NCBI GenBank assembly: GCA_000091165.1 | Contig: FP565575.1 | Span: 2,160,001-2,192,000 of the forward strand | Direction: 5' to 3' | DNA length: 32,000 nt | From: Candidatus Methylomirabilis oxygeniifera | GTDB lineage: Bacteria > Methylomirabilota > Methylomirabilia > Methylomirabilales > Methylomirabilaceae | Shown: positions 5,591 to 22,310 of the stretch, one piece after another | Position numbering within the stretch: the first letter of the stretch is position 1 | How the letters are laid out: each line of letters begins with the position of its first letter | Notes under the pieces: generated by a model | What the model was told of the DNA's origin: nothing | The model's database searches: none | Seen by the model: only the letters and a program-made list of their open reading frames with translations | Translations under genes and position numbers: made by a program

Positions 5591-5989
5591 TCAGAGCCAC
5601 AAAACCTTGATGTCCTTCTCGACCGACTTGAACTCGGGATCACCGGTGTAGAGATCGGCTTTCTTTTGTCTTGCCAGGGCAGCAGCAAAGCAATCGGCCA
5701 GCGACATTTTTCTTATTGCCTTGATCTCTCCGGCCAATTCAGCGAGTGGTTGGTCCGCCGGAACAACTTCGAGCGGGAGGCCGAGCAGTTTGTGTTGGAC
5801 CTCGCTCCATCGCCCTGCCCCGACTTTTCGCTCCACCATGTATCTGACCTCCGCCCAGTTCGGCGCCGCAATGAAAAGAACCTGGTCGGTCTGGGCGGCC
5901 TTTTCCAGAAGATCGAGGATCTTCTCGTAACCTCTCTCCTTGAATAGGAAAGCAAGCACCGCGTAGCTATCAAGTACGGACCTTTTCAA
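5591..5989 (-). CDS. vapC: PIN-domain toxin, VapC family
   Basis: 132 aa with N-terminal VLDSYAVLAFL acidic motif and C-terminal ADCFAAALA...LYTGDPEF. Overlaps the upstream antitoxin gene by 20 nt. Confidence 0.85.
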   Translation of the reverse strand: MKRSVLDSYAVLAFLFKERGYEKILDLLEKAAQTDQVLFIAAPNWAEVRYMVERKVGAGRWSEVQHKLLGLPLEVVPADQPLAELAGEIKAIRKMSLADCFAAALARQKKADLYTGDPEFKSVEKDIKVLWL

Positions 5990-6230
5990 CGTCGGCTTCC
6001 TCGCGCCTCTTGTCCATAGCCCGCTCCTTCAGCAGCTCTTCAGTTACGGACGTCTCGCTTTTGAGCATGCCACAGACGCTCCGAATATGTTCTGGTGTAA
6101 CAGGCTGAAACACGATTTCGCTCTCGCGCTCGATGAAGCAGATCTTTGTACCAGGCTTGATACCATACTTACGGCGCAGCCGAGACGGGACAACAAGTTG
6201 CCCCTTGCTTGTTACATGTGCGACTTCCAT
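5970..6230 (-). CDS. vapB: AbrB/SpoVT/MazE-fold antitoxin, VapB
   Basis: Internal ATG preceded by GGAGGAG 8 nt upstream. MEVAHVTSKGQLVVPSRLRRKYGIKPG is a swapped-hairpin AbrB-type DNA-binding motif. 86 aa. Confidence 0.85.
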   Translation of the reverse strand: MEVAHVTSKGQLVVPSRLRRKYGIKPGTKICFIERESEIVFQPVTPEHIRSVCGMLKSETSVTEELLKERAMDKRREEADVEKVRT

Positions 6231-7475: not shown

Positions 7476-7490
7476 GTGAACCTCCAGTGA

Positions 7491-7571
7491 GCGCTCAGCC
7501 ATCAGCAGTCAGCAGAATCAGGATAAGGAAACGAAGGCTGATCGCCGAAAGCTGACTGCTGTTCGCTTCAG
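7491..7571. repeat. Heptad-repeat hairpin element, TCAGC/GCTGA type (copy A)
   Basis: Left units are GCGCTCA GCCATCA GCAGTCA GCAGAAT. Right units are GCTGATC GCCGAAA GCTGACT GCTGTTC GCTTCAG. Terminal stem is CAGCAGTCAGC / GCTGACTGCTG. Fills the gap between the cupin stop (7568) and the kinase start. Confidence 0.8.
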
Positions 7572-7840: not shown

Positions 7841-8207
7841 AGTTCCGTCCTCCTTCTGCGCCAACATATCTCCTTGGCAAGTAGCCGCATGGTAAGCCGC
7901 CCCTGACACACCGGTCAAGCCGAAACTGAAACTGATGGTATCCCCGCAGTCTCGGATGGACTCCTTCCGTGTGCTGCGGGACTCGCGGATGGTGATCGTT
8001 GCCGTTCCCCTCCGGTCCAGGGCTTCCCTTCTGGGAACAGCGATGTTGCAAGGAGCGCTCAGACAGTCCTCGCACACTCCAGGACCCCACCCAAGACTGA
8101 GCGATGACATCTGATGGACATGTTGTCTCATCTGCCCTCTCGGACGACCCTTGGAACCGCGCGCCCGCTCTGCTATCATCTCTGTAGAGGATAGGAAAGG
8201 AGAGGCC

Positions 8208-8447
8208 ATGCCGACCCCTGAGGAGCTCAAGGAAGAGGACAGGAAGATACGGCAACTTCGGCTCGTGGTCAGCCTCACGATGAGCACAATCAGCCAGACG
8301 ACACTATCGCTCGATGAGGCCTCCAGGATGGTCATCGCCACGAGGGAATTGGCACTACGCCTCTTTCCCGGGAAGGAGCTGGCCTTCGATCTGATCTATC
8401 AGCCCCGCTTCCGGAGACTCCTGGCCGAACGGTACCACCTCCATTAA
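8208..8447 (+). CDS. Hypothetical small protein (79 aa)
   Basis: ATG preceded by AAGGAGAGG. Helical-looking sequence with no family recognised. Lies 28 nt upstream of nfo on the same strand. Confidence 0.4.
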   Translation: MPTPEELKEEDRKIRQLRLVVSLTMSTISQTTLSLDEASRMVIATRELALRLFPGKELAFDLIYQPRFRRLLAERYHLH

Positions 8448-8475
8448 GCCTGTCTTTCACACCATCGCCACCTCA

Positions 8476-9366
8476 ATGAGAACACAGCAGTCACAACACT
8501 CCAAGCTCAAAGACTTGCTCCTCGGCGCCCATATGTCGATTGCAGGAGGGGTCGATCTGGCGCCGCTGAGGGGCCAACAGGTCGGCTGTCACACAATCCA
8601 GCTTTTCACCAAAAGCAGCAACCAGTGGCGGGCCAGATCGTTGCCCGCCGACGAGATCGACCGATTCCATGCCAATCTTCGGGCTGCCGCCATCGCTCAG
8701 ACCGTAGCCCACGGCGCGTACCTGATCAATCTGGCATCCACGGACCCCGCATTACATCAGAAGTCGATGGCGGCCTGCCTGGAGGAGCTCGAACGGGCAG
8801 AGGCGCTGGGTATCCCCTCCCTCGTAATCCATCCAGGTGCCCACATGGGGGCCGGCGAGGCGGCGGGATTACAACAGGTGGCGAACAACATTCGGGAACT
8901 GCTGAAGCGGACGAAGGGCTATCGGGTACAGGTGGTTCTTGAGACCACGGCCGGTCAGGGAACCACGTTAGGACATCGCTTCGAGCAGATCGCCCTTCTT
9001 TTGAATCAGATCGATCTTTCAGAGCGAACCGGCGTCTGCCTGGATACGTGTCACCTGTTTGCGGCCGGTTACGATATCCGGACACCGGATGGGTATGCGA
9101 ACGTTCTGAAGCTGTTCGATCAGACCGTGGGTATCTCCTCCCTCAAGGTCATTCACCTCAACGACTGTAAGAAGGAGTTGGGCTGTCGCGTGGACCGCCA
9201 CGAGCACATCGGCAAGGGGGCGATCGGGCTTGACGCATTCCGCTGCCTGGTCACCGATCCTCGCCTGCGGGGTATCCCGATGATCATCGAAACCCCGAAG
9301 GACGGCAATTTTATCACAGCTGATTGCCGAAATCTGAAGATCCTTCAAGACCTGGCGAAGAAGTAG
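8476..9366 (+). CDS. nfo: Endonuclease IV (deoxyribonuclease IV)
   Basis: 296 aa, collinear with E. coli Nfo blocks (GAHMSIAGG, LFTKSSNQWRA, HGAYLINLAS, HPGAH, LETTAGQG, CLDTCHLFAAGYD, HLNDCK...RVDRHEHIG.G). Confidence 0.95.
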   Translation: MRTQQSQHSKLKDLLLGAHMSIAGGVDLAPLRGQQVGCHTIQLFTKSSNQWRARSLPADEIDRFHANLRAAAIAQTVAHGAYLINLASTDPALHQKSMAACLEELERAEALGIPSLVIHPGAHMGAGEAAGLQQVANNIRELLKRTKGYRVQVVLETTAGQGTTLGHRFEQIALLLNQIDLSERTGVCLDTCHLFAAGYDIRTPDGYANVLKLFDQTVGISSLKVIHLNDCKKELGCRVDRHEHIGKGAIGLDAFRCLVTDPRLRGIPMIIETPKDGNFITADCRNLKILQDLAKK

Positions 9367-9559
9367 TCGGTCCCGCACCGGCCTGCCGCGTCAGTTCACT
9401 GCTCACGCTACCGTCATCGGGACGATTTTTGATTGCATTGATTCTGAAAAGGAGTTAACGTGAGAGCGCGAGAAAAGGCGAGAAGAACTCCGCACCTGTG
9501 GGTCTGCCTCAGGCCGGCGGAGCAGAAGATGCAAGGAGGTCGCCCGGGGCTATTTCGCC

Positions 9560-10222
9560 ATGATCCAGATGTTCCATGTGTATAAAACGTTTGGAAAAGA
9601 TCTGGAGGCCTTGGTTGATGTCGATCTTCATATTCACAAAGGGGAGATGGTCTTCCTGGCCGGCCCCAATGGCGCCGGAAAAAGTACACTACTCCGCTTA
9701 ATCTTCTGTGACGAGGTCCCTACCTCCGGTCAGATCCTGGTCAACGGCCGCAACATCGTCCGCATGAAACCGAGAATGGTCCCACAACTGAGACGGACTC
9801 TGGGGATCGTCTTTCAGGATTTCAAGCTCCTTCGCGACCGGACTATCGAGGAGAACTTAGCTTTGGTTGCGAGAGTAGTCGGCCTGACGATGCCACAAAC
9901 CCGGTACAAGGTCGCGCAACTGCTGACGCTGGTCGGGCTGTCTCACAAGGCGCAGATGGCGCCGTATAAGCTGTCAAGCGGCGAGCAGCAGCGGGTGGCC
10001 ATGGCAAGAGCGTTGATGAACGATCCTCTCATTCTCCTGGCCGACGAACCGACCGGGAATCTGGATGCTGAGCTGGCCACAGACGTCCTGCGACTCCTCT
10101 TTGAGGTAAACGCACAGGGAACGACCGTCCTAGTGGCTACTCACAACCTTAAGCTGGCAGAGGAGGCGGGCTGCCGCACAGTGTTTCTCAAGCAAGGAAA
10201 GATCGTCGGAGAATGGCGGTAA
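9560..10222 (+). CDS. ftsE: Cell-division ABC ATPase FtsE
   Basis: 220 aa with Walker A GPNGAGKST, signature LSSGEQQR and Walker B ILLADEPT. Followed by ftsX. Confidence 0.9.
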   Translation: MIQMFHVYKTFGKDLEALVDVDLHIHKGEMVFLAGPNGAGKSTLLRLIFCDEVPTSGQILVNGRNIVRMKPRMVPQLRRTLGIVFQDFKLLRDRTIEENLALVARVVGLTMPQTRYKVAQLLTLVGLSHKAQMAPYKLSSGEQQRVAMARALMNDPLILLADEPTGNLDAELATDVLRLLFEVNAQGTTVLVATHNLKLAEEAGCRTVFLKQGKIVGEWR

Positions 10223-10238
10223 ATAGGGTGATGTGTGA

Positions 10239-11135
10239 ATGGTTGAGAAACTGAAATATCTGTTGACTCATGCTCTGATCAACTTGGTTCGCGCCGGGTG
10301 GGGCGGCTTGGCATCGATCGCCAGCATCGCGGTGTCGTTTGTCATTATCGGCATTTTTATCCTGGTGATTCAACACTTCAACGCGCTTATTGCTGAGTGG
10401 CAGGAACAGTTCCAGGTGTCTGTCTTTCTGGACGACCAGATTACCCCTTTGCAGTTGGACATGCTGAAGCGACGGATCGAGAACGAGGCGGCCGTCAAGG
10501 CCTTTACGCATACAAGCAAGGAAGAGGCGCTCACTAACTTTCGTCGGGAACTCAAAGGACAGGAGAGTCTCCTCGAAGGGCTCGGGGATAATCCGCTTCC
10601 CGCGTCGTTTCAACTCAAGATTCGCGAAGAGTATCAGAGCTCGGAGGCCCTCAAGGGGCTCAGCGCATTCCTGAGCCGCCTCGAGGGGGTAGAGGACATC
10701 CAATACGGGCAGGAATGGGTCGAACGTATGACTCGGGCCGGACAACTCATCAGGCTGTTGGGCGCCATTATCGGTTCGGTGCTCACGCTCGGGTCGGCAA
10801 TGATTGTCTCCAATACCATTCGACTCGCAGTCTATGCGCGCGCACAGGAGGTTGAGATTATGCGCCTTGTTGGCGCTACCAAAGCGTATATCCGCGCCCC
10901 CTTCCTGGTAGAAGGGATGCTCCAGGGCGGCCTTGGCGCCGCGCTCGCACTGGGCGTCCTATTCGCGGCCTACCGCTTCGTCGCGCCGACCTTCAATGTG
11001 GTCGCCCCACTCTTCTCGATAGGAGCAGGCCAAGGATTCCTGGAATCGTCGATGATGGCAGGTTTGGTCGGTGGCGGCGCAGCAATCGGCGCTCTTGGCA
11101 GTTCGCTCGCTGTCAACCGTTTCCTGAAGATGTAG
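10239..11135 (+). CDS. ftsX: Cell-division permease-like protein FtsX
   Basis: 298 aa. One N-terminal TM segment, a periplasmic domain and three C-terminal TM segments. Synteny with ftsE and an M23 activator. Confidence 0.9.
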   Translation: MVEKLKYLLTHALINLVRAGWGGLASIASIAVSFVIIGIFILVIQHFNALIAEWQEQFQVSVFLDDQITPLQLDMLKRRIENEAAVKAFTHTSKEEALTNFRRELKGQESLLEGLGDNPLPASFQLKIREEYQSSEALKGLSAFLSRLEGVEDIQYGQEWVERMTRAGQLIRLLGAIIGSVLTLGSAMIVSNTIRLAVYARAQEVEIMRLVGATKAYIRAPFLVEGMLQGGLGAALALGVLFAAYRFVAPTFNVVAPLFSIGAGQGFLESSMMAGLVGGGAAIGALGSSLAVNRFLKM

Positions 11136-11156
11136 TCGGCAGTCACTGGAAGGAGG

Positions 11157-12395
11157 ATGATGTCCCGTTCTTCTCTTCGCCTCAGGACGGTGGTGGCCCT
11201 CATAGCGTTCCTCCTGCTCGGCTCGTCATCCGGCGTGGCAGCCGAAACAAAGACAGGGGCCTCATCGCGCCTCCGCGAAAAGCGTCAAGAGCTCAGCCAA
11301 GTAAAAAGAGATCTGAACCGGGAACGCAAGCAGGCGCAACAGGTGGCGCAGAAGGAGCGAACGCTTTTTGACGAGCTGGACCGGATCGATCATGAGCTGC
11401 AGCAAAAGGGACGGGAACTGAAGGAATTGCAGACCAGGCTGAAGGTAAGTGCTGAACGGCTGCTGACCACTCAGCACGATATCACACTCACCCGGACTCG
11501 CCTTAACCAGATACAGGACCTGTTCCGGAGGCGCATGCGCGCCATTTACAAACAGGGACGACACGGCTATGTCCAGGCCCTCCTATCCTCGGAGGATCTA
11601 TCGGGCGCCGAGCGCCGCATACGGTACCTCGGGGCAATTGCTAATCAGGACCAGCGGATGGTGGCGGCCTACACGACCACTCTCGACACGCTGGGGGCTC
11701 AACAGGCCACGTTGGAACAGTCAAGGGCTGAACTGACCACGAGCCAGAAAGCCATCACAGCAAAGCGCGAAGAGATTCTGGAGGAGCAGAATACCAGACG
11801 CGTGTTGTTGGCCAAGGTTCAGGAGCACAAGAAGGGCCACTTGACAGCCATCCGGGATCTGGAGCTGGCGGCCCGCGAGCTCCAGGGTCTTATCAGTCGC
11901 CTGCAGCAACAGAGGCGACTCCAGATCGCAAGAGGGTCTCGCCCCGCACCGTCGCGGGCTCATGGCCAGACCGACGAATCGGATGGATCGTTTTCATCGC
12001 TCAAGGGCCGCTTGCCGTGGCCCACGGCCGGCGTCATGACGTCTACGTTCGGTCGGCAGGAGCACGTACGGTATAGGACGGTCACATTTAACCACGGCAT
12101 CGAGATTCATGCCCCAGAGGGACAAAAGATCGCGTCAGTCTCCGACGGCGTTGTACTGTACGCTGATTGGTTCAAAGGGTATGGCCGCTTGATCGTCCTT
12201 GACCACGGGGACGGGTACTACACCGTCTATGCGCATGCCGCCGAGATCCTTGTCAGACTGGGCGATCACGTGACGAAGGGACAGACCATCGGGTTGGTGG
12301 GCGCCACGGGGTCTGTGACCGGATCCCAGCTCTATTTCGAAGTACGGTATCAGGGCGGGGCTCAGGATCCCGCAGCCTGGCTTGTCTCTAACTGA
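11157..12395 (+). CDS. EnvC-like murein hydrolase activator (coiled coil + M23/LytM peptidase domain)
   Basis: Signal peptide, long Q/E/R/L-rich coiled coil, and a C-terminal M23 domain (HGIEIHAPEG...VLDHGDGYYTVYAH...GATGSVTGSQLYFEVR). Confidence 0.85.
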   Translation: MMSRSSLRLRTVVALIAFLLLGSSSGVAAETKTGASSRLREKRQELSQVKRDLNRERKQAQQVAQKERTLFDELDRIDHELQQKGRELKELQTRLKVSAERLLTTQHDITLTRTRLNQIQDLFRRRMRAIYKQGRHGYVQALLSSEDLSGAERRIRYLGAIANQDQRMVAAYTTTLDTLGAQQATLEQSRAELTTSQKAITAKREEILEEQNTRRVLLAKVQEHKKGHLTAIRDLELAARELQGLISRLQQQRRLQIARGSRPAPSRAHGQTDESDGSFSSLKGRLPWPTAGVMTSTFGRQEHVRYRTVTFNHGIEIHAPEGQKIASVSDGVVLYADWFKGYGRLIVLDHGDGYYTVYAHAAEILVRLGDHVTKGQTIGLVGATGSVTGSQLYFEVRYQGGAQDPAAWLVSN

Positions 12396-12405
12396 TGTGA
12401 AACGA

Positions 12406-12468
12406 GAGGGTTGAGGGTTTAATCAAAGGGGACCCCCTAGACCCTAAACCCTAGGCCCTATACCCTTT
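12406..12468. repeat. Heptad-repeat hairpin element, GGGTT/CCCTA type (copy B), 9 x 7 nt
   Basis: GAGGGTT GAGGGTT TAATCAA AGGGGAC CCCCTAG ACCCTAA ACCCTAG GCCCTAT ACCCTTT, between the envC-like stop (12395) and the ctpA start (12485). Confidence 0.8.
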
Positions 12469-12484
12469 CTCTTAGGAGGAATCG

Positions 12485-13825
12485 ATGAGATTCGGAGATC
12501 TGTTTCGAAAGGGGCGGAAGGGTGTCGTCATCATATTGACGATGGCGTTGTTGGTCATCGGTGGCGGCGGCCACCATGAGGTCACGGCTGTCGAGGACAG
12601 CTACGAACGGCTGAAGGTCTTCGCCGAGGTCCTGTCGCTGATTCAGGCGAATTACGTCGAGGAGACGAAGCCTCGCGACCTGATCTACAGCGGCATTAAG
12701 GGAATGCTGGAGTCGCTGGATCCTCACAGCGCCTTCATGCCGCCCGATATCTTCAAAGAGATGCAGGTTGAGACTCAGGGCTCGTTCGGAGGGCTGGGAA
12801 TCGAGATCACGGTCAAGGACAGGATGCTGACGGTGGTGGCGCCGATTGAAGGGACCCCCGCCGATCGGGCCGGGATTCACCCTGGCGACCGGATCGTCAA
12901 GATCGACGGAAGTCCGACGAAAGACATGACCCTCATGGAGGCGGTAAAAAAGCTCCGAGGTCCAAAGGGGACAAACGTGGTTGTGACTATCCTCCGCGAG
13001 GAGTCCCCTGGGCCGTTCGAGCTGACGTTGGTTCGGGAGATCATCGAGGTCAAGAGCGTCAAAGTCAAAGAGTTGGGCGATGGGGTCGCCTACGTCCGGA
13101 TCAGCGCGTTCCAGGAACGAACCGGAAAGGACCTCCAGAAGGCGATCGAACAGTTGGGACAGAACGGGATGTCCGCGATGGTGCTGGATCTTCGCAACAA
13201 CCCGGGCGGCCTCTTAAACCAGGCTGTTCAGGTGTCCGAACTGTTCCTGGACCAAGGGCAACTCATCGTCTACACCGAGGGTCGGATCAAGAATCAAGAT
13301 CTCCGCTTCTCGGCGGAACACGGGGCTCAGATCCCCAAGGTTCCTATGGTGGTCTTGGTGAACGGAGGATCCGCCAGCGCCTCCGAGATCGTCGCGGGCG
13401 CGCTTCAGGACTGGAAGAGGGCCGTAGTCCTTGGAACCAAGACCTTCGGGAAGGGGTCGGTGCAGACAGTGGTTCCGCTAAGCGATGGTTCCGGCCTGCG
13501 TTTGACTACGGCAAAGTACTTCACGCCAAAAGGGCGATCAATCCACGGCACAGGACTTGTGCCTGATATCATTGTGGAGGCGCCACGGCCCACCATGGCG
13601 AAGGCACAGGTTGACCCCGCTGAAAAGGAGAGTGAGTCGGGGAAAGAGCGTCCTGAGAGACGACAGGAGAAGAAGATCTCCGAAGAGGAGGGAGACGTCA
13701 CGCTCCAGATCGGCAAGCGAGAGGGGCCTGATCCCAGCACCGACGTCCAGTTGAAGCGAGCAATGGAGATTCTCAAGGCCAGCCAGATCATCGAGAAGGG
13801 ATTCATGAAGGGGAACGCTGGATAA
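12485..13825 (+). CDS. ctpA: Carboxy-terminal processing protease (S41A, PDZ-containing)
   Basis: 446 aa with TM/signal anchor, PDZ (GLGIEI...GTPADRAGIHPGDRIVKIDG) and catalytic blocks (LDLRNNPGG, GSASASEIVAGALQD, TFGKGSVQ). Confidence 0.9.
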   Translation: MRFGDLFRKGRKGVVIILTMALLVIGGGGHHEVTAVEDSYERLKVFAEVLSLIQANYVEETKPRDLIYSGIKGMLESLDPHSAFMPPDIFKEMQVETQGSFGGLGIEITVKDRMLTVVAPIEGTPADRAGIHPGDRIVKIDGSPTKDMTLMEAVKKLRGPKGTNVVVTILREESPGPFELTLVREIIEVKSVKVKELGDGVAYVRISAFQERTGKDLQKAIEQLGQNGMSAMVLDLRNNPGGLLNQAVQVSELFLDQGQLIVYTEGRIKNQDLRFSAEHGAQIPKVPMVVLVNGGSASASEIVAGALQDWKRAVVLGTKTFGKGSVQTVVPLSDGSGLRLTTAKYFTPKGRSIHGTGLVPDIIVEAPRPTMAKAQVDPAEKESESGKERPERRQEKKISEEEGDVTLQIGKREGPDPSTDVQLKRAMEILKASQIIEKGFMKGNAG

Positions 13826-13829
13826 GGCA

Positions 13830-13892
13830 GCAGTCAGCCATCAGCATTCAGCGGTCAGCTCCAAGCTGTTTGCTGAGAGCTGATAGCTGCTC
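13830..13892. repeat. Heptad-repeat hairpin element, TCAGC/GCTGA type (copy C), 9 x 7 nt
   Basis: GCAGTCA GCCATCA GCATTCA GCGGTCA GCTCCAA GCTGTTT GCTGAGA GCTGATA GCTGCTC, all in one 7-nt register. Lies 5 nt after the ctpA stop and 7 nt before the tsaD start. Confidence 0.85.
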
Positions 13893-13898
13893 TTCACA

Positions 13899-14987
13899 AT
13901 GGCACATCTGACTCTGGGAATTGAAACCTCGTGCGATGAGACGGCGGCCGCTATCCTGGAGGATGGTCGACGCATCCGTTCTTCCGTCGTCGCCTCTCAG
14001 GATCTCCTCCACGCCCCTTACGGCGGGGTCGTCCCCGAATTGGCCTCACGTCGTCATACAGAGGTTATCTGGCCGGTGGTCCGGGAGGCGTTGACGAGGG
14101 CGGGGGTCGGCCTCGACAACCTTGATGGCATTGCGGCAACGTCAGGGCCAGGACTGATCGGCTCGCTGCTGGTTGGCCTCTGCTTCGGAAAGGCGCTCGC
14201 CTTTGCCTGTGGAATCCCCCTAGTCGGCGTAAACCACCTAGAGGGACATCTCTATGCCGCCCTGTTGGATCACGAAGGGCTTTCCTTCCCCTTCACCGGA
14301 CTCGTGGCATCGGGTGGTCATACCCACCTGTACCTGGCCACAGCCCCTGGCGAGTATCGCTTGCTGGGCCGAACCAGAGACGATGCCGCAGGAGAGGCAT
14401 TCGACAAGGTAGCAAAGTTTCTCGGTCTCGGTTATCCGGGCGGGCCGCTGATCGAGAAGTGGGCCCAGAAGGGCGATCCGAACGCTGTACGGTTTCCCAG
14501 GTCGATTCCTCCGCGAGGCTCATACGATTTCAGTTTCAGCGGCCTGAAGACCGCAGTGGTGAATTACGTGAAGAGTGCAACGTTCAAGGTTCAAGGTTCA
14601 GGGGAACCCCCCCTATCCCCTAGCCCCTCGACCCTAGACCCTCGTGTGGTGGCGGACATCTGCGCTGGATTCCAGGAGGCTGTGGTGAATGTGCTGGTTC
14701 GCGTGAGTCTGGCGGCGGCGAAGGCGTCCGCCTCTCGCCGTCTCGTGCTGGCCGGAGGGGTGGCCTGCAACGGCAGGCTCCGCTCGGAGTTTGTGGAGCG
14801 GGCACCAGGGGAAGGCGTACAGGTCTACTACCCCACGCCGTCTCTGTGTACCGATAACGCCGCCATGATTGCTGCCGCCGGTTACCCTCGTCTTCTGCGC
14901 GGCGAGCGAGCCTTACTCTCGCTGAACGCCGACGCCGATCTCGCTCTTGGCCTGTCTGCGTGCCCCACACAGGCAGACCTGACATAA
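13899..14987 (+). CDS. tsaD: tRNA N6-adenosine threonylcarbamoyltransferase TsaD, carrying a 21-codon repeat-derived insertion
   Basis: 362 aa with canonical blocks (LGIETSCDETAAAI, GPGLIGSLLVG, VNHLEGH, ASGGHT, DDAAGEAFDK, GGVACN, CTDNAAMIA). Confidence 0.95.
   Translation: MAHLTLGIETSCDETAAAILEDGRRIRSSVVASQDLLHAPYGGVVPELASRRHTEVIWPVVREALTRAGVGLDNLDGIAATSGPGLIGSLLVGLCFGKALAFACGIPLVGVNHLEGHLYAALLDHEGLSFPFTGLVASGGHTHLYLATAPGEYRLLGRTRDDAAGEAFDKVAKFLGLGYPGGPLIEKWAQKGDPNAVRFPRSIPPRGSYDFSFSGLKTAVVNYVKSATFKVQGSGEPPLSPSPSTLDPRVVADICAGFQEAVVNVLVRVSLAAAKASASRRLVLAGGVACNGRLRSEFVERAPGEGVQVYYPTPSLCTDNAAMIAAAGYPRLLRGERALLSLNADADLALGLSACPTQADLT
14583..14645 (+). repeat. Heptad-repeat element (GGGTT/CCCTA type, copy G) embedded in frame in tsaD, 9 x 7 nt
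   Basis: TTCAAGG TTCAAGG TTCAGGG GAACCCC CCCTATC CCCTAGC CCCTCGA CCCTAGA CCCTCGT. Corresponds to codons 229-249 (FKVQGSGEPPLSPSPSTLDPR). Confidence 0.8.
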
Positions 14988-14997
14988 AGGAACGCGA

Positions 14998-15507
14998 ATG
15001 GCGAAACTGTCGATTCTACTCTACCCATCTCCCGTCATCCGTAAGAAGTCTGTGTCGGTGACGTCGATTAACGGCGAGCTTCAGCGCTTCATCGACGACA
15101 TGGTGGAAACGATGTATGCGGCTCCGGGCATGGGGCTTGCCGCTCCCCAAGTGGGAGCACTCAAGCGGGTCATCGTCCTGGACCCATCCGACGATCGTAC
15201 GTCGCATCGGCCTATGGCCCTTATCAATCCCGTGCTGGTCGCCGGTGAAGGACAGATCGTAGATGAAGAGGGATGTCTCTGTATCCCGGACCTGAATGAG
15301 CCGGTCTCGCGATTCAAGCAGGTGGTCGTAAAAGCCTACGATCGGAACGAGAAGGAGATCATTCTGGAGGGGGCCGACCTGCTGGCGCGTATCCTGCAGC
15401 ACGAGATCGACCACTTGGATGGTATCCTATTTATCGACCGCCTGAGTACGGCAAAGCGCCTCCTGCTCAAGCGGCGGCTCAAGAAGGCAGCCAAACAGGG
15501 GGACTAG
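14998..15507 (+). CDS. def: Peptide deformylase
   Basis: 169 aa with the three signature motifs GLAAPQVG, EGCLCIP and HEIDHLDG. Confidence 0.95.
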   Translation: MAKLSILLYPSPVIRKKSVSVTSINGELQRFIDDMVETMYAAPGMGLAAPQVGALKRVIVLDPSDDRTSHRPMALINPVLVAGEGQIVDEEGCLCIPDLNEPVSRFKQVVVKAYDRNEKEIILEGADLLARILQHEIDHLDGILFIDRLSTAKRLLLKRRLKKAAKQGD

Positions 15508-15569
15508 CTTTCGGCGATCAGCAGTCAGCTTGAAGCTGAAGGCTGAACGCTGATGGCTCTGACTGCTAT
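15507..15569. repeat. Heptad-repeat hairpin element, TCAGC/GCTGA type (copy D), 9 x 7 nt, between convergent genes
   Basis: GCTTTCG GCGATCA GCAGTCA GCTTGAA GCTGAAG GCTGAAC GCTGATG GCTCTGA CTGCTAT. Stem is AGCAGTCAG / CTGACTGCT. Touches the def stop (15505-15507) and the SurA-like stop (15566-15568). Confidence 0.85.
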
Positions 15570-16615
15570 AACTTCATTTCAACGTTGGCTTTGGTCCTGA
15601 GACTCTCAATCCACTCCTTGAATTTCGTCTCGGTCTTTTGCTCAAACAGCAGAGCGCGGAGGCGCTCCTTCACCTGATCGAATGACAGGGTCTGACCGGG
15701 AACCCGCTCCTCGACGACAATAAGGTGGAAGCCGGCCGGAGTCGTGATGATGCCGCTGGGCTGTCCGATCGGGAGGGCGAGAGCAGCCTGCTCCAACTCC
15801 GGTGCGAGTTCTCCGTGCTTCATCGTCCAGACCTCGCCGCTGGACGACGCGAGCGGCCCTTCCGCATATTGCTTGGCGACCGTCGCGAACTGTGTTCCCT
15901 TCTTAAGAAGCGTCTGCGCTTCCTCGATCCGCTTCTTGGCTCGCGACAGCTCGCCGGGCGTCGCCTGAGGGGGCGTAGCCACGAGGAGATGGCGAATCTT
16001 GAATTGCGGGATCTCCCTGAATTGGTCCTGCCGTTGCTCGTAATATTGCTGGACCTCCTCATCGAGAACGACGACCTTGGCTCGTACCCGCCTCGCCACC
16101 AGCTTCGTCAGCATCACCTGGTCGGCAATCCCCTTCCGAAACTGCTCCTCGCTGAGTTGTTCTCTGGACAGCGCAGCCCTGAGTTCCTCGTCGCTGGCTA
16201 ACCCATTACGCTTCTTTAATTCCTCGATGGCGGACTGTATCTCCGCAGGGGCCGTCTCGATCTTCTCCTTTGTCGCCTCCTGAAGCTGTAACCTCCTGAG
16301 AATCAGCTCGTCCAGAATCTGGCGTTCCGTACTGCGAAGCAGCCGCTCTCGCTCCGCTCCCAGCGTTTCCCGTACGATCCTTCGGATAGCCTGAATCCCC
16401 TCCTCTTGCACGTCGGTCAGGGTAATCACATCATCGTTGACAACGGCAACGATGCGATCGAGGATCACCGCATCGGCGCCTGAAGCGGCGAAAACACTGA
16501 GCAGAAGGATAACAGTCATAAGGGAAGCGTGGAGCGTGGAGCGTGGAGCGTGGAAGGATAGACCGACCCTGCTCTGCCGCCTGCCGCCTGCCGCCTGCTG
16601 CCTTGCTCGTTTCAT
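15566..16615 (-). CDS. SurA-like periplasmic chaperone / PpiC-type peptidyl-prolyl isomerase
   Basis: SurA N-terminal-like helical domain plus a parvulin domain (FKIRHLLV...GELSRAKKRIEEAQ...GG.V..M..GEL.PE...A...L..GQ.SGII.T..GFHLI). Start taken at ATG 16615, which overlaps the mfd stop as ATGA. An alternative internal ATG at 16519 lacks a charged n-region. Confidence 0.8.
   Translation of the reverse strand: MKRARQQAAGGRRQSRVGLSFHAPRSTLHASLMTVILLLSVFAASGADAVILDRIVAVVNDDVITLTDVQEEGIQAIRRIVRETLGAERERLLRSTERQILDELILRRLQLQEATKEKIETAPAEIQSAIEELKKRNGLASDEELRAALSREQLSEEQFRKGIADQVMLTKLVARRVRAKVVVLDEEVQQYYEQRQDQFREIPQFKIRHLLVATPPQATPGELSRAKKRIEEAQTLLKKGTQFATVAKQYAEGPLASSSGEVWTMKHGELAPELEQAALALPIGQPSGIITTPAGFHLIVVEERVPGQTLSFDQVKERLRALLFEQKTETKFKEWIESLRTKANVEMKL
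16523..16606. repeat. Heptad tandem-repeat element (copy E), 12 x 7 nt in one register, no obvious hairpin
   Basis: GGAAGCG TGGAGCG TGGAGCG TGGAGCG TGGAAGG ATAGACC GACCCTG CTCTGCC GCCTGCC GCCTGCC GCCTGCT GCCTTGC. Corresponds to codons 4-31 counted from ATG 16615 (codons 6-33 of the ORF-track ORF starting at GTG 16621). Confidence 0.8.
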
Positions 16616-19600
16616 CGACACGCCTGAAGACGCGACAATAGCGTCTGAGCAATAGCGATCTTGTCGCCTCCCTCTACCTTGTATTCCAGTTCATCGTACC
16701 CTGTACGGTAACCTCCCACGGGCCCCCCTTTTGTAGAGGAGGGATGGGAGGATTTCGGAATATAGCGTAATCGGCCGCCCTCTTCACGAAGCAGAGTCGC
16801 GACCTTGTCCGGAGCAAGCGGCGGCGACTCATCGAACACGATACGGATCGTCTTGCCCACGACAACAGCCTCGCGAATGTGGAGCGTCCGGGCCAGGATT
16901 CTAAGCGCCATCGCGGTCAGCAGCCGTTCCGTCTCTGGAGGAGGCTCACCAAAGCGATCGACCAGCTCCTCTCGAAGGGCGGAGACCTCCGACAACCCAG
17001 AGAACGCGGCCAATCGCTTGTAGAGCTGGAGCCGTACGTTGGAATCCTCTATATAGATCTCCGGCAGATACCCTTCCGCCTCCAGCCTGATGACAGGCTC
17101 GACGGGTTCCGCCACCGCCTGACCCTTCAACTCTTTGACCGTTGACTCGATCAATCGGCAGTACAGATCAATCCCTACGGCGGCGATCTGGCCGTGCTGC
17201 TCCGGTCCCAGGAGGTTACCCGTGCCCCTGATCTCCAGATCTCTCGCCGCCACCTTGAATCCGGAGCCAAGCTCGGTCAGTTCTGCAATGACCTGGAGTC
17301 GCTTCTTTGCCGTCTCAGACAGCGCAGCATCCTTCGGTACCAGGAGGTAGGCGTAGGCTCGATGCTTGTCCCGACCGACCCGTCCGCGAAGCTGATAGAG
17401 CTGCGCGAGGCCCAAGGCATCGGCTCGATCGATAATGATCGTGTTGGCGGCGCTGACATCCAGGCCGGATTCGATAATCGTGGTACACAACAGGACATTG
17501 AATGTGCCGTCGTAGAAGTCGCACATGATCCGTTCCAGGCGTTCTTCCGGTAATTCGCCGTGCGCCACCGCCAGTCTCGCCTCAGGAACCAACTGCTTGA
17601 TCAGACGCGCCACGCCCTGGATGCTCTCCACGCGATTATGGACGAAGAAGACCTGCCCCCCTCTGTCCAGCTCGTGCTCTATCGCCTCTTTGATGAGCGC
17701 CGGGTCGAACCTGGCGACGGTCGTTTTGATCGAGAGACGGTTATCCGGCGCGGTCTCGATGGTGCTGATGTCCCGGACTCCCAACATCGACATATGAAGG
17801 GTCCGCGGAATCGGTGTGGCGGTAAGCGTCAGGACATCGACCTGTCGCCGCAGTTGCTTCATGCGCTCCTTAGCCGCGACGCCAAAGCGGTGCTCCTCAT
17901 CCACCACTAACAGCCCCAGGTCTCGAAACCGGACATCCTTCTGGAGCAGGCGGTGGGTGCCGATCACGATATCGACAACCCCCTCACCGACGCCACGCAG
18001 CACCTCGCTCTGCTCCTTGCGGCTGCGGAAGCGTGAGAGCATCTCAACCTTAGCCGGAAAGCCGCCGAACCGCTCGGAAAACGTCTGAAAATGCTGCAGG
18101 GCAAGGACCGTAGTCGGCACCAGCACCGCGACCTGCTTTCCCCCTATGATCGTCTTAAAGGCGGCCCGCATCGCCACCTCGGTCTTACCGTATCCGACGT
18201 CGCCGCAGATCAGACGGTCCATCGGCCGGTCTCGCTCCATGTCGGCCTTGACGTCGGCGATCGCCTGGAGTTGGTCCGGGGTTTCCTCATATGGAAATCC
18301 AGCCTCGAATTCCCGTTGCCACGGCGTATCGGGGGGGAGGGCATGCCCTTTGATGACCTGTCTGGACGCATACAGCGCGAGCAACTCCTGGGCCATCTCG
18401 CGAACGGACGCCTTGACCCGCTCCTTGGCCTTGGCCCACGAGGCGCTCCCCAACCGGTCGAGGGTCGGTGGATTGCTGTCAGCACCCGCATACCGATGGA
18501 TCAGGTGGAGTTTACCGGTAGGCACATACAGCTTGGCGTGCTCGGCATAGAGGATGAGCAGGTAGTCACCCTCCGTCCCGCCCACAGTAAGCTGCCGCAG
18601 CCCTTTGTACACACCGATCCCGTGATCCTCGTGAACCACAAAATCGCCATAGGTCAACTCCTGGTACGAGGCAAGAGGGGAGATCTCCTTTGGTCGCAAG
18701 CGTCGAGGTGGGATGTGCCGAGCCCCAAAGATCTCGGCTTCGGTGATATAGGTCAGCAATGCCTCATCCAGATGAAAGCCGCTGCTGAGCTCGTGAGAAA
18801 GAACGGCAATCTCACCCGGCGACGCCACGCCGAGCCCGACAGACGCCGCGACATCGTGCTCCCTCAGTACCTCAGCCAGGCGCCCACCCTGGGCCTCACT
18901 CCTGCAGACCAGGTGGATTTTCCGACCCTGCCGACGCCACTCTTGGAGGTCGCGTATCAATTCGGTCATTCGTCCACGGTAGGCCGGAATGGTGCGTACC
19001 TGAAACCCGAGAGTCGCCTCTTCCGCAAGGCTGTTCGTCGGTAAGAACTCCTCCATGTAGATCCGCGGCCGCAGAGAGAGCCTCTGTTCAACGTCGCTCC
19101 AGTCGACCAGTGAGGTGGACGGCGCGACGTCGCGCGCCGCAGCCCGGAGGCCGGTCGGATCTATCAAGACCCACAAGGCATCCGGAGCTACGTACTGCAG
19201 GAGATCGGCCGGTTCCGGATAGAAGTATGGAAGATACGTATCGAGGCCCAGGACCTGTCGCCGATCCTCAAGCGCCGTGATGATCTCGGACGGAACCGAG
19301 CTGTCCCGGGTCTTCTTCATCGCGCGGAGCACCTCGAGGGCCCGCCGACATACCTCACCGGTCAATGGCGCCTCTACAACCGGCAGGACGGTCACCTGCT
19401 CAACGGAGCCGATGGACCGCTGGGTAGCCGGATCGAATGCACGGAGTTCAAGTATCTCGTCACCGAAGAACTCAGCGCGAACAGGACAATCCGGCGGTTC
19501 GACACGGCCTGTGGTGAGCCCGGTCGAACCGTTCAGGCTGGGTGTGAGGGGGAACAGGTCGAGGAGGTTCCCGCGCAGGCTGTATTCGCCGCGGTCTGTC

Positions 19601-20085
19601 GTCTGATGCACTCGACGGTAACCACCTGTCTCGAGAACGCCAACCAGTTCATCCCGCGCGATCAGTCGTCCGACGTACAGCGTAAAGGCGGCTCCCAGGA
19701 TAGCCGAGGGAGGCGCAAGGCGTTCGAGGGCCGCTTGAAGACAGACAACTGCAAGGTCACAGTTCTTGGTCGCCAGACCCGTCAGACAGGTAATCCGCTG
19801 ATACCCGGTCTCTGGATCCTCATCGCGTTCGGCCATGACACCTACCGAGTCGCGGAAGAAGACTTGCAGATCCTTCGCCAGCAGCTCGGCCTCAGCAGAC
19901 GAGGAGGTTACGACCACGAGAGGGCGACCCGACCGGCGAGCGATCTGGGAAAGGATCAACGCTTTCGAGGCTCCGAAAAGGCCGGTGAGATATAGCGCGT
20001 CCGCTCCGCTGTCAAGTCGGTCCACGATCTCGCCGATCTCCGGGATTCGGAGATCTTCCGCCAACTCCATCGATCGTATTACCAT
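16612..20085 (-). CDS. mfd: Transcription-repair coupling factor Mfd
   Basis: UvrB-homology N-terminus, CarD/TRCF RNAP-interacting domain, superfamily-2 translocase motifs (GDVGYGKTEVA, DEEHRFGV, LTATPIPRT, QLRGRVGR) and a C-terminal TRCF domain. Start set at ATG 20085 (alternative 20070). The 43 upstream codons in the ORF track cross a palindrome and the rfaE2-like gene end. Confidence 0.95.
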   Translation of the reverse strand: MVIRSMELAEDLRIPEIGEIVDRLDSGADALYLTGLFGASKALILSQIARRSGRPLVVVTSSSAEAELLAKDLQVFFRDSVGVMAERDEDPETGYQRITCLTGLATKNCDLAVVCLQAALERLAPPSAILGAAFTLYVGRLIARDELVGVLETGGYRRVHQTTDRGEYSLRGNLLDLFPLTPSLNGSTGLTTGRVEPPDCPVRAEFFGDEILELRAFDPATQRSIGSVEQVTVLPVVEAPLTGEVCRRALEVLRAMKKTRDSSVPSEIITALEDRRQVLGLDTYLPYFYPEPADLLQYVAPDALWVLIDPTGLRAAARDVAPSTSLVDWSDVEQRLSLRPRIYMEEFLPTNSLAEEATLGFQVRTIPAYRGRMTELIRDLQEWRRQGRKIHLVCRSEAQGGRLAEVLREHDVAASVGLGVASPGEIAVLSHELSSGFHLDEALLTYITEAEIFGARHIPPRRLRPKEISPLASYQELTYGDFVVHEDHGIGVYKGLRQLTVGGTEGDYLLILYAEHAKLYVPTGKLHLIHRYAGADSNPPTLDRLGSASWAKAKERVKASVREMAQELLALYASRQVIKGHALPPDTPWQREFEAGFPYEETPDQLQAIADVKADMERDRPMDRLICGDVGYGKTEVAMRAAFKTIIGGKQVAVLVPTTVLALQHFQTFSERFGGFPAKVEMLSRFRSRKEQSEVLRGVGEGVVDIVIGTHRLLQKDVRFRDLGLLVVDEEHRFGVAAKERMKQLRRQVDVLTLTATPIPRTLHMSMLGVRDISTIETAPDNRLSIKTTVARFDPALIKEAIEHELDRGGQVFFVHNRVESIQGVARLIKQLVPEARLAVAHGELPEERLERIMCDFYDGTFNVLLCTTIIESGLDVSAANTIIIDRADALGLAQLYQLRGRVGRDKHRAYAYLLVPKDAALSETAKKRLQVIAELTELGSGFKVAARDLEIRGTGNLLGPEQHGQIAAVGIDLYCRLIESTVKELKGQAVAEPVEPVIRLEAEGYLPEIYIEDSNVRLQLYKRLAAFSGLSEVSALREELVDRFGEPPPETERLLTAMALRILARTLHIREAVVVGKTIRIVFDESPPLAPDKVATLLREEGGRLRYIPKSSHPSSTKGGPVGGYRTGYDELEYKVEGGDKIAIAQTLLSRLQACR

Positions 20086-20099
20086 ACGGTCAGCACTCA

Positions 20100-20127
20100 G
20101 TAGGGGCACGTTGCAACGTGCCCCTAC
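20100..20127. repeat. 28-bp perfect palindrome GTAGGGGCACGT-TGCA-ACGTGCCCCTAC
   Basis: 12-bp GC-rich arms around a TGCA centre. Contains the rfaE2-like stop codon (20124-20126) and lies about 15 nt upstream of the mfd start. No U-tract follows on the transcribed strand. Confidence 0.85.
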
Positions 20128-20615
20128 AGCCGTGTCATTTCCATGATACGACGTACGATACGACTTGTAGAACAGCCCTCCACCAACGGGATCGTAACGA
20201 CCAGCCCGCCACACCTCTCTACCGTCTCCCGCCCCACGACGTCTTCCATCGCCCAGTCGGCGCCCTTGACCAACACATCGGGCTCAAGCGCTGCGATGAC
20301 GCAGCTCGGATCCGCCTCCTCAAAGATTACCACGTAGTCGACCGAGGCCAGAGCCGACAGCAACTCTGCCCGTTCATCCTGCAAGAGCACGGGTCTGGAC
20401 GGGCCCTTCAGAAGTCGAACGGATGCGTCACTGTTCAGACCAACAATCAATAGGTCGCCCAACGCCCTTGCTTGCTGCAACAGGCGGGTATGTCCCCGGT
20501 GAAGCAAATCAAAACAGCCGTTGGTAAAAACTGTCCGCTCTCCCAGCGCCCGACGCCGCCTGACGATCGCAACCAGCTCATGCAAGGTTCTGAGCTTTCC
20601 GACATCGACCGTCAT
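20124..20615 (-). CDS. D-glycero-beta-D-manno-heptose 1-phosphate adenylyltransferase (RfaE domain II / HldC-like cytidylyltransferase fold)
   Basis: 163 aa from the ATG that overlaps the upstream gene stop as ATGA. Carries FTNGCFDLLHRGH (the HxGH nucleotidyltransferase motif) and typical RfaE2 blocks (VGLNSD.SV..LKG..RP, VDYVV.FEE..P). Confidence 0.85.
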   Translation of the reverse strand: MTVDVGKLRTLHELVAIVRRRRALGERTVFTNGCFDLLHRGHTRLLQQARALGDLLIVGLNSDASVRLLKGPSRPVLLQDERAELLSALASVDYVVIFEEADPSCVIAALEPDVLVKGADWAMEDVVGRETVERCGGLVVTIPLVEGCSTSRIVRRIMEMTRL

Positions 20616-20872
20616 TCCGGCGTCCCGATCTCTCCTGGAACAACGGAGAGCAATCCGCACAGAACGGCCTGCTCGATCAGCCGTCTCCCTTTTTCAGCAT
20701 ACGGGGCGGAGGTCATCAGCCGAATCTCCCCAAGCGGACCGAAGGTAATCCCCTGAAATCCGCCGACTCGCATAGAACGAATCCAGCACGGCACACCATA
20801 CCGTTGCAGATGCAGACGGAGAAGGTCCGCCTGCATCTCATCATACGTCGTATAAATCATCCGCTCATACAT
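20612..20872 (-). CDS. DUF2007-like small protein (putative signal-transducing beta-alpha-beta fold)
   Basis: About 86 aa (MYERMIYTTYDEMQADLLRLHLQRYGVPCWIRS...) resembling DUF2007 proteins. Translationally coupled to the downstream adenylyltransferase gene. Start uncertain (20872 or 20860). Confidence 0.55.
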   Translation of the reverse strand: MYERMIYTTYDEMQADLLRLHLQRYGVPCWIRSMRVGGFQGITFGPLGEIRLMTSAPYAEKGRRLIEQAVLCGLLSVVPGEIGTPE

Positions 20873-21085
20873 CCGCAGCCTGGACTGGACCGACGATAAC
20901 CCGATTGAACGACGTAAGACAAAGCAGTATCCCGGAAGAGGGACCGGGCCTGAGGAATGGACCAACGCAGCAACGTGGCGTCACGACTTCCGCGGTAACC
21001 CTTTGAACGATGTCCGAGGGCAATTCGACTCTTGGCGCACCAACCAGCGGTCAATTCGGAGAGACGATCGCCTTCCCTCTCTCCC

Positions 21086-21778
21086 CTATTGCAAAACGAG
21101 ATGGGCCCTCCGATTCCATTTCCAGGCCGACTCATCGTGGCCTGTGGCGAAGGGCCGCTCCTTCCCATAGCTGACGACCTTCATCTTCCTGGCGCTGATC
21201 CCGGCCTCTACGAGATAACTCTTGACCGACATTGCGCGTCGCTGGCCGAGCGCCTGGTTGTACTCTACGGTTCCGCGCTCATCGCAGTGGCCCTCGATGA
21301 TGATCGAGGCCGTCGGATTGGCCTTCAACCATCGAACATTCTCCGCGAGGCCCTTTGCCATCTCCGTCCGAATCGACGATCTGTCGAAATCGAAGAAAAT
21401 GTCTTTCAGGGGTGACGCCTTCTCTGCTGCTGCGCTCGCCCCGGCGGGGATCCTTGCCACCGGCGCACCGGCCATTTTTTCTCTCAGCGCAGTAAAGGCG
21501 GTCCGGCACTTACCGTTTATGCGGGCGTCCGGGTCCGCGAACGGATTGAACTCTGTAGCCTCGTGAGTCATCCAATCCAGACACGCTTCTGCGCCGGCGT
21601 ATTCCTCAGGCGCGCGCTTCTCTGCGCCCGAGGCCTTCGCCTCAGCGAGGGCGACCTTCATGCCCTCTATCTCGGGGCGATACGACGCGGTGGTTGCGCA
21701 CCCTGCAATGATCAGGGCCATCGATACACTGAGTAGTACGAAATGGATTACCCGGCCCATCTTCGGACTCCCACTCAT
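21086..21778 (-). CDS. OmpA/Pal-family lipoprotein with N-terminal DUF4398-like helical domain
   Basis: Lipobox LIIAGC. C-terminal OmpA_C peptidoglycan-binding domain (FDFD.S.I......L......L.....IIIEGHCDERGT.EYN.ALG.RRA..V..YL...G). Confidence 0.85.
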   Translation of the reverse strand: MSGSPKMGRVIHFVLLSVSMALIIAGCATTASYRPEIEGMKVALAEAKASGAEKRAPEEYAGAEACLDWMTHEATEFNPFADPDARINGKCRTAFTALREKMAGAPVARIPAGASAAAEKASPLKDIFFDFDRSSIRTEMAKGLAENVRWLKANPTASIIIEGHCDERGTVEYNQALGQRRAMSVKSYLVEAGISARKMKVVSYGKERPFATGHDESAWKWNRRAHLVLQ

Positions 21779-21803
21779 CTTTACGCTCTCCCCTTTGAGC
21801 CAA

Positions 21804-21838
21804 CTGTCGGCTTATGGCTGTCGGCCATCAGCTTATTG
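21804..21838. repeat. Short heptad array (CTGTCGG CTTATGG CTGTCGG CCATCAG CTTATTG), possible degenerate family member
   Basis: Five phased 7-mers in the 54-nt gap between the DUF4398 gene stop and the OmpA-like start. The minus strand reads ...CTGATGG CCGACAG CCATAAG CCGACAG. Confidence 0.45.
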
Positions 21839-22207: not shown

Positions 22208-22310
22208 TCCACAGATAGCTGACGACTGTCTCCTGGCGGCCGGACCTTGCCGGCCGATTGGTCAGGCACGCTCAATTTATCACACTCTGTTGCCTCGCGT
22301 CAAAGGCGAC

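Follow-up and report, generated by a model that had tools for sequence, protein, structure and literature searches.

Heptad-phased hairpins at gene ends of Candidatus Methylomirabilis oxyfera and their possible origin as solo termini of a PF05635 cassette

A stretch of 32,000 nucleotides from the NC10 bacterium Candidatus Methylomirabilis oxyfera (oxygeniifera in assembly GCA_000091165.1; contig FP565575.1, positions 2,160,001 to 2,192,000), here called the window, carries short palindromic elements built from phased heptanucleotides at its gene ends, which raises the question of what kind of DNA occupies these sites. The main type of element reads 5'-(TCAGCNN)3-5, a variable centre and (NNGCTGA)3-4-3'. 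An original prediction from the letters of the window had offered several functions for these hairpins, and the evidence now points to two of them, mobile miniature elements and protein-binding sites. On balance, we lean towards regarding the hairpins of the window as solo, gene-less termini, similar to miniature transposable elements with inverted repeats (MITEs), of a larger cassette in which two heptad arms enclose a gene of the PF05635 family. The window copies are best read in this way; that they share core, phase, handedness and number of units with the arms of that cassette is directly visible in the sequences. The link to PF05635, the fixed handedness and a distribution across phyla and phages all go beyond what had been predicted.

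The connection to PF05635 surfaced in a screen for transposase-like open reading frames (ORFs) located between distant left and right arms, which yielded a heterogeneous set of ORFs. In one of these loci (L044), an ORF of 119 aa is bracketed by a (TCAGCTA)4 array on one side and a GCTGA arm on the other, and its product matches PF05635 ("23S rRNA intervening sequence protein", E 9e-43) and TIGR02436 ("four helix bundle protein"), with a weak match to Avd; the right arm supplies the final codons and the stop of this gene. In the same locus (L044:1586-2140), about 80 nt comprising the loop, the right arm and the start of the next array are directly duplicated on either side of the gene, which could be the footprint of gene entry into or exit from a hairpin. 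The only other PF05635 gene in the 3.1 Mb of fetched loci that were scanned is preceded by a complete hairpin 16 nt upstream (L106).

A search of metagenome contigs recovered 502 PF05635 relatives, of which the best 80 loci, containing 78 distinct genes, were examined. A TCAGC array of at least three units is present within 200 nt upstream of 57 of 77 genes, a GCTGA array of at least three units stands at the gene end in 60 of 73, and both arms are found in 51 of 72. From the beginning of the right arm to the end of the stop codon is exactly 19 nt, and the arm overlaps the last six codons, the gene ending with K-L-K-A-D-R-stop (AAG CTG AAA GCT GAC CGC TGA), and the stop is the in-phase TGA of a heptad unit in 54 of 63 cases. 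The density of arrays amounts to 4.41 per kb in the flanks of the PF05635 genes versus 0.20 per kb elsewhere in the same loci (a 22-fold difference), and wrong-handed arrays at the gene end occur in three loci. Other PF05635 lineages exhibit the same layout with other cores (CAGTAGT/ACTACTG and CTGAGAA/TTCTCAG), and viral contigs (L453-L459) contain PF05635 genes with TCGGC upstream and GCCGA downstream in six loci and with TTAGC/GCTAA in L457; the core of the arms co-varies with the lineage of the gene. In two loci (L044 and L388), solo hairpins upstream of the gene keep a remnant of its 3' end in their loop.

A full cassette would consist of a left arm of about four TCAGCNN units, a ribosome-binding site, the PF05635/TIGR02436 gene for an S23p- or Avd-like protein, and a right arm of about four NNGCTGA units beginning inside the last six codons. 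Solo copies may either derive from gene-bearing copies or be spread by them in trans, and the phased pentamers may be units that a protein recognizes, for which the pentameric PF05635 product would be the most economical candidate. S23p is known to form a homopentameric toroid of four-helix bundles (PMC4990558), and PF05635 is homologous to Avd, the accessory protein of diversity-generating retroelements (DGRs; PMC10053308). The elements would persist at gene boundaries for doing little harm there: they would provide stops in all three frames of both strands, and fold-back of the transcript would keep the upstream stop and the downstream start adjacent to each other. Inside genes, only in-frame and stop-free versions would be expected to survive.

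The anatomy of the family was derived from 313 parsed relatives. Four units per arm is the modal number, and the median length is 64-65 nt (interquartile range 50-75) with no bias towards multiples of three, at variance with the near-fixed length divisible by three that had been proposed. The edge of the element is a partial unit (AGC), outside of which no conservation is seen, and the arms repeat an invariant pentamer every 7 nt, with the two spacer nucleotides free to vary. Arm order is fixed: a strict 4+4 pattern was found TCAGC-first in 46 stretches (about 70 elements) and in the inside-out order in one, TCAGC coming first on both strands, and the G-rich type shows AGGG first in 41 cases and CCCT first in one. 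Two possible causes of this handedness were ruled out. Thermodynamics does not account for it, as elements with swapped arms are equally stable (mean predicted values of -36.1 kcal/mol for native, -36.2 for swapped and -16.2 for shuffled sequences), and the provision of stop codons in three frames was discarded as a cause, since stops arise on both strands whichever arm comes first. The elements occupy short gaps between co-directional genes, with median distances of 10-15 nt from the preceding stop and 23-29 nt to the following start, and may be depleted from divergent gaps, which contain 4 of 67 elements compared with a background of about 14%. In 76 of the 313 relatives, about a quarter, the stop codon of the upstream ORF lies within the element. 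In the open-access literature that we searched, neither the TCAGC family as such nor its handedness, its presence in phages or a link between it and PF05635 beyond rRNA was found described.

The family is distributed widely. A scan of one genome per bacterial species with the pattern that picks out the four main copies of the window (see below) gave at least 120 matches, compared with about 35 expected by chance for the whole collection according to our own arithmetic. The 80 matches listed include about 28 from Acidobacteriota, 10 each from Planctomycetota and Chloroflexota, 8 from Nitrospirota, 5 from Desulfobacterota-like bacteria and 4 from Gemmatimonadota, and Omnitrophota, Binatia, Elusimicrobiota, Chlamydiota, Deinococcota and one cyanobacterium are also represented among them. 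A scan of a viral collection likewise gave at least 120 matches versus 13 for a reversed-core control. One of the viral contigs, IMGVR_UViG_3300045936_000120 (34 kb; loci L147, L159 and L161, also L216 and L300), belongs to a true tailed phage, as judged from its terminase, portal, major head and tape-measure genes, and carries at least 25 TCAGC hairpins, which occupy most of the gaps between co-directional genes at 3-10 nt past the stop and 9-17 nt ahead of the next start; no PF05635 gene was found in this phage. BLAST searches with a consensus element, in which the low-complexity filter may mask matches, gave no match among cultured phages and only a direct array from Pseudoalteromonas among plasmids. 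The latter, from P. shioyasakiensis (NZ_CP077771.1; L372:1385-1590), comprises about 30 GCTGANN units whose spacers cycle through CG, TG and AA, and is located downstream of the isocitrate lyase gene on a gammaproteobacterial chromid.

Within the window itself, which has a G+C content of 59.4%, eight heptad arrays are present in total (Table 1), and about 14% of the intergenic DNA consists of heptad arrays. The original prediction that palindromic elements with heptad phasing form a genuine family at gene ends was borne out. Period-7 identity strongly exceeds that of shuffled controls, with 44 sliding 28-nt windows reaching at least 21 matches versus a mean of 0.01 in 200 dinucleotide shuffles, and no 28-nt window reaches this value at any other period from 4 to 15. 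Tandem Repeats Finder picks up the heptad arrays independently, and the pattern TCAGCNNTCAGCNNTCAGCN{3,33}GCTGA matches the four main copies and none of 100 shuffles. The variant arrays proposed at 12406-12468, 14583-14645 and 16523-16606 are real as well, although two of them are not intergenic (the second and third, which lie in frame inside genes). Some details were modified. Whether a copy measures exactly nine units or 63 nt is a matter of how its ends are called, and an objective parse, allowing up to one mismatch per unit core, gives 75, 64, 43 and 56 nt for the four TCAGC-type copies. The core CAGCAGTCAGC, described as common to three copies (A, C and D), is present in those at 7491, 13830 and 15507 and missing from that at 26881. 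The copies at 13830 and 15507 do keep a single 7-nt register from one arm through the loop to the other, while that at 26881 is off by 1 nt and that at 7491 by 4 nt. The rule that every intergenic copy starts 0-10 nt from a stop codon applies except for the copy at 26881, which abuts a start and lies about 50 nt from the upstream stop. In the element at 13827-13890, a GC dinucleotide recurs every 7 nt throughout, and the following tsaD ATG lacks a Shine-Dalgarno sequence. Only the copies at 13830 (dG -33.5, z -4.8) and 15507 (z -3.9) have folds clearly more stable than those of shuffled sequences, and the remaining ones have z values of -1.0 to -1.8.

Table 1. Heptad arrays of the window, with window positions, strand where assigned, and surroundings
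Array	Position	Strand	Surroundings
TCAGC type, 4+4 units, 23-nt centre	7488-7562		between the stop of a cupin gene (7568-7570, minus strand) and the PfkB start (7475)
G-rich type, (GAGGGTT)2 ... (CCCTAGA/CCCTAAA/CCCTAGG/CCCTATA)	12406-12468		flanked by the stop of the M23 peptidase gene (12395) and the start of Ctp (12485)
TCAGC type, 5+4 units, 5-nt centre (element first reported)	13827-13890		2 nt past the Ctp stop (13825), 8 nt ahead of the tsaD ATG (13899)
In-frame array (TTCAAGG)3 ... (CCCCTNN)5	14583-14645	+	within tsaD (13899-14987); codes for a loop insertion of roughly 20 aa
TCAGC type, 3+3 units, 5-nt centre	15511-15553		between convergent def (stop 15507) and surA-like (stop 15566) genes; degenerate outer units out to 15507-15569
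(GGCAGGC)3-4 ... (CCACGCT)4, read on the gene strand	16523-16606	-	in frame in the surA-like gene, within the region for its cytoplasmic N-terminal tail
Short degenerate array GCTGTCG / GCTTATG / GCTGTCG / GCCATCA	21804-21838		overlaps the stop (21833) of a gene for 118 aa
TCAGC type, 5+3 units, 4-nt centre	26885-26940		immediately upstream of the AcrB-like ATG (26878, minus strand)

The gene order around these elements is that of a conserved housekeeping stretch (cupin, PfkB ... FtsE, FtsX, M23 peptidase, Ctp, TsaD, Def, SurA-like, Mfd ... OmpA ... CopCD, AcrB-like). Over 21 kb, the window shows 100% identity to contigs named Methylomirabilis oxyfera (ENA ERZ24907703) and to GCA_009026205.1. 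A further palindrome of the window (20098-20128) has perfect arms of 11 bp (TAGGGGCACGTTGCAACGTGCCCCTA), is preceded by two TCAGC-like units, and lies between the mfd start and the stop of a nucleotidyltransferase-like gene; the site has a different sequence in the related locus L129. In addition, a PIN-domain gene and a small MazE-like gene with overlapping ends are encoded on the minus strand at 5591-6230 (Pfam hits precomputed for the public contig), which probably constitute a toxin-antitoxin module.

A comparison of the window with four syntenic loci of relatives (L127, L128, L129 and L130; five genomes in all) shows that the elements at orthologous sites may be present, absent or of a different type. 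The element at 7488-7562 is missing from the orthologous 29-nt gap in L127 and L128. The element at 13827-13890 has orthologues in L128 and L129 and is replaced or absent in L127 and L130, that at 15511-15553 has an orthologue in L129, a remnant in L127 and no counterpart in L130, and the short array at 21804-21838 keeps its position in all five genomes. Between the M23 peptidase and Ctp genes, the G-rich array of the window corresponds to G-type arrays in L128 and L130 and to TCAGC-type arrays in L127 and L129. In L129, from the closest relative (L129:5500-5565, orthologous to window 12372-12481), the M23 ORF is 16 codons longer and extends into the TCAGC arm, with the TGA of the first GCTGA unit serving as its stop. 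Because the grouping of these alleles, window with L128 and L130 and L129 with L127, is contrary to the distances at four-fold degenerate sites and thus discordant with the genome tree, an exchange by recombination is suggested by the sequences. Between the window and L129, the difference at four-fold degenerate sites is 0.114 and the overall identity 93.3%, and the islands of low identity between them (window 8100-22250) mostly coincide with heptad arrays or hairpin sites. Turnover is far more rapid in the arrays than at synonymous sites and proceeds in part via gain or loss of heptad units. The six contigs encoding an identical TsaD are all 100% identical to the window and therefore uninformative on polymorphism between strains.

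The tsaD array differs wholly between the window and L129 (TTCAAGG/CCCCTNN versus GGGTGTC/CTACCCC) and is of the same length in both. Throughout the Methylomirabilis clade, the length of TsaD varies at one loop only, between TAVVNYVK and LDPxLVADICAGFQEA, which measures 30, 37 or 44 aa in the main series and also 48-66 aa; the steps of the main series correspond to 7 aa, or 21 nt, or three heptads. Alignments with TsaD structures from the PDB break at the array, where residues 227-251 of the query (25 residues) face 6 residues in the solved chain. Some relatives contain direct TCAGC arrays in tsaD without a GCTGA arm, because that arm would bring in stop codons. In the surA-like gene, whose start ATG (16615) overlaps the mfd stop (ATGA) in all five genomes, the ORF remains open through different arrays, and the right arms use TAT or CAC rather than TAG or TAA.

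Several previously described systems share features with these elements, although none had been recognized in the original prediction as a described relative. The closest are the intervening sequences (IVSs) of 23S rRNA genes in Coxiella, Leptospira and others, in which a PF05635 protein is encoded in the loop of a stem of about 28 bp, equivalent to four heptads, and the number of heptamers varies between strains. The IVS of Coxiella has been called a selfish element; its terminal inverted repeats form a stem of 28 bp, it encodes S23p, it contains tandem heptamers (GACAGAT) that vary between strains, and RNase III excises it (PMC4990558). An ORF-bearing 23S rRNA IVS is the same kind of element as the heptad-armed PF05635 cassette and has the same layout. 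The IVSs differ in being sited in helices of the 23S rRNA gene (helix 9/25/45), whereas the copies of the window have no ORF and are found between protein genes or within them, and Rfam detects no rRNA in the window; moreover, the Coxiella repeat is GACAGAT and its stem nearly perfect, whereas stems of the window type are interrupted every 7 nt. In Geobacter metallireducens, eight pairs of about five tandem heptanucleotides on opposite strands, 5'-(TCAGRAN)5 ... (NTYCTGA)5-3', have been listed as "class 3 global regulator binding sites" and read, without a test and in this one genome, as putative sites of IHF/HU-type global regulators (PMC2700814, Aklujkar 2009). They agree with the window elements in architecture, handedness, CTGA core and intergenic location (e.g., proB-proA), and differ at one position of the core (TYCTGA instead of GCTGA) and in having no noted link to PF05635.

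The G-rich heptamers of Xanthomonas (GGGAATC) and Nostoc (GGGGAYT), with 70-75 convergent, G-first inverted pairs per Xanthomonas genome (PMC4692102, Rehm 2015), resemble the G-rich variants of the window: they are intergenic, close to the upstream ORF, conserved in position and variable in length. Their unit sequence is another one, however, and they have been studied as G-quadruplex formers, whereas the TCAGC type contains no G-tracts. Direct TAACTGA repeats with stops in all three frames are known from Beggiatoaceae and cyanobacteria (PMC4679880, MacGregor 2015). Like the short tandemly repeated repetitive (STRR) sequences of cyanobacteria, they are tandem intergenic heptanucleotides, and TAACTGA includes the CTGA core, but both kinds mostly form direct arrays, often upstream of starts, and differ in consensus and taxa. 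The STRR heptamers, reportedly described by Mazel in 1990, are also distinct by their consensus, since the window units are TCAGCNN and AGGGNNN and the host is an NC10 bacterium, not a cyanobacterium. Repetitive extragenic palindromic (REP) sequences and REPIN-RAYT elements, MITEs and Rickettsia palindromic elements represent short palindromic interspersed DNA at gene ends, whose solo copies far outnumber the gene-bearing partners, and Rickettsia palindromic elements also survive in frame within genes. With REP, REPIN and MITE systems the window elements have in common terminal inverted repeats shared with a gene-bearing partner, here the PF05635 cassette; they differ by the lack of a GTAG/CGTC tag and of a RAYT or other transposase, the partner being a four-helix-bundle Avd-like protein, and by arms that are phased arrays instead of a single palindrome. 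The earlier placement of STRR and of REP and bacterial interspersed mosaic elements (BIMEs) as mere analogues remains adequate.

Several observations weigh against an origin of the window hairpins as solo cassette termini. No PF05635 gene is present in the 32 kb of the window or in about 60 kb of DNA from its relatives, and the G-rich and GGCAGGC variants of the window were linked to none of the PF05635 lineages found here. Solo loops match the 3' end of the gene in 9.1% of cases versus 3.9% for shuffled loops, a weak excess. The spacers of different copies are identical at 0.21 within a locus and 0.14 between loci, and 3.6% of the within-locus pairs reach 0.6; because of this low identity, the copies within one genome are not alike as copy-and-paste MITEs are. 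The two flanks share a direct repeat of 6 nt or more in 9.9% of cases versus 3.1% of controls, which is again weak, and no clear target-site duplication is apparent. We know of no enzymatic activity of PF05635 proteins and of no demonstration of their mobility. Finally, the direction of the association might be the reverse, with genes homing into pre-existing hairpins. One more specific mechanism, which we consider a long shot, is that the PF05635 protein reads the heptad arrays with one unit per subunit and drives a copy-and-replace homing of whole arrays into existing arrays, possibly mediated by RNA as in DGR systems. Such homing would explain the fixed handedness, the co-variation of arm core and gene lineage, and the replacement of the tsaD array by one of the same length at 11% synonymous difference.

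The main rival to an origin from cassette termini reverses this order of events, assuming that the hairpins came first, the arrays arising locally by polymerase slippage, and that the PF05635 cassettes are guests homing into them, with the solo copies as their targets. An excess of heptamer repeats in bacteria is known. Slippage has been proposed as their source (PMC4692102, PMC4679880), and its signature is seen here in adjacent spacers, which are identical at 0.199 versus 0.092 expected, about twice the expectation. The three-heptad steps of the TsaD insert are in keeping with it, as are long direct GCTGANN arrays that exist without any partner arm, the ratio of solo to gene-bearing copies of roughly 300:1, and the lack of a gene remnant in most solo loops. 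Slippage alone leaves unexplained, however, why one pentamer with random spacers recurs across phyla and why the handedness is fixed at 46:1. The fusion, always at position -19, of the right arm with the conserved C-terminal end of the gene and the change of the arm core with the gene lineage argue for a single co-evolving unit, and we regard this rival as rather unlikely.

Two further explanations appear less likely still than slippage followed by homing. Of these, it seems doubtful that the elements serve a host DNA-binding factor other than, and unrelated to, PF05635 as recognition arrays, with one reader on each heptad and a pair of convergent arrays marking or insulating the boundaries of genes, following the logic of omega/ParB of pSM19035. 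The conserved 5-bp core with its free 2-bp spacer, the strand symmetry, the fixed handedness and the preferred array length of four all fit such a role: the parS site of pSM19035 is read as contiguous 7-bp heptads, of which at least four are needed (PMC9499535), and the similar paired arrays of Geobacter were proposed as global-regulator sites (PMC2700814). Yet no candidate reader is known, core types replace each other at the same site with a turnover faster than that of synonymous sites, which would be unusual for functional operators, and the in-frame arrays inside genes and the direct-only arrays have no obvious role in a scheme of this kind.

The remaining explanation is that the elements act as functional RNA hairpins in polycistronic mRNAs, i.e., as 3'-end stabilisers, attenuators, RNase III processing sites or translational-coupling devices. 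It draws on their occupation of short gaps between co-directional genes and their low share in divergent ones, on the ability of the opposed arrays to form a long stem (modal 4+4 heptads, mean minimum free energy -36 kcal/mol versus -16 for shuffles), on the IVS stems being RNase III substrates (PMC4990558), and on the phage retaining at least 25 copies. What is conserved, however, is the phased motif and not an RNA helix. In the symmetric register, complementarity between the spacers of the two arms is at expectation for the a:d positions and slightly depleted for b:c (0.218 versus 0.278 expected), so that pairing is if anything avoided, and there is none in any other register (0.0886 versus 0.0941). 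Compensatory changes are not apparent: only 6 of 247 unit pairs with a variant core are compensated, and left arms with TCGGC show no association with right arms carrying GCCGA. For copies between co-directional genes, the sense RNA is no more stable than the antisense RNA (60 versus 64, p = 0.97), and G-U pairs are equally frequent in both, giving no signal of selection at the RNA level; nor does handedness matter for folding. Terminator-like sites number 14 versus 14.1 expected and do not include the main elements, which lack T-tracts, and Rfam returned no family at its gathering and E-value thresholds, with weak generic hairpin matches only. The absence of covariation, the parity of sense and antisense strands and the lack of terminator features therefore argue against a terminator or RNA stabiliser, both of which had been among the functions initially offered, and for a strand-symmetric constraint at the level of DNA, and we consider a functional RNA improbable. 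Nothing specific speaks in favour of Chi-like, KOPS-like, uptake-sequence or telomere-addition functions.

To our knowledge, PF05635/TIGR02436 represents an abundant protein family without known function, the origin of the rRNA intervening sequences has been an open question since the 1990s, and the over-representation of heptamers in bacteria, known since 2007, has no accepted cause. The evidence presented here ties the three together into one testable object, an element of the intervening-sequence and heptamer-repeat kind that lives outside rRNA, and makes the function of PF05635 directly accessible to testing. It would be a cassette with phased heptad ends whose solo copies populate gene boundaries, and sometimes ORFs, in Acidobacteriota, Planctomycetota, Nitrospirota, NC10, Chloroflexota and their phages. 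Few spots in these genomes evolve as fast as the elements, which could serve as strain markers. About a quarter of the neighbouring genes receive their stops from them; they also lengthen or break up essential proteins, TsaD among these, and mislead gene callers. If the PF05635 protein reads the arrays, it would do so by a new code of protein-nucleic acid recognition with a 7-nt register, and if copy-and-replace homing takes place, it would represent a new mode of DNA mobility shaping gene boundaries in many phyla and phages.

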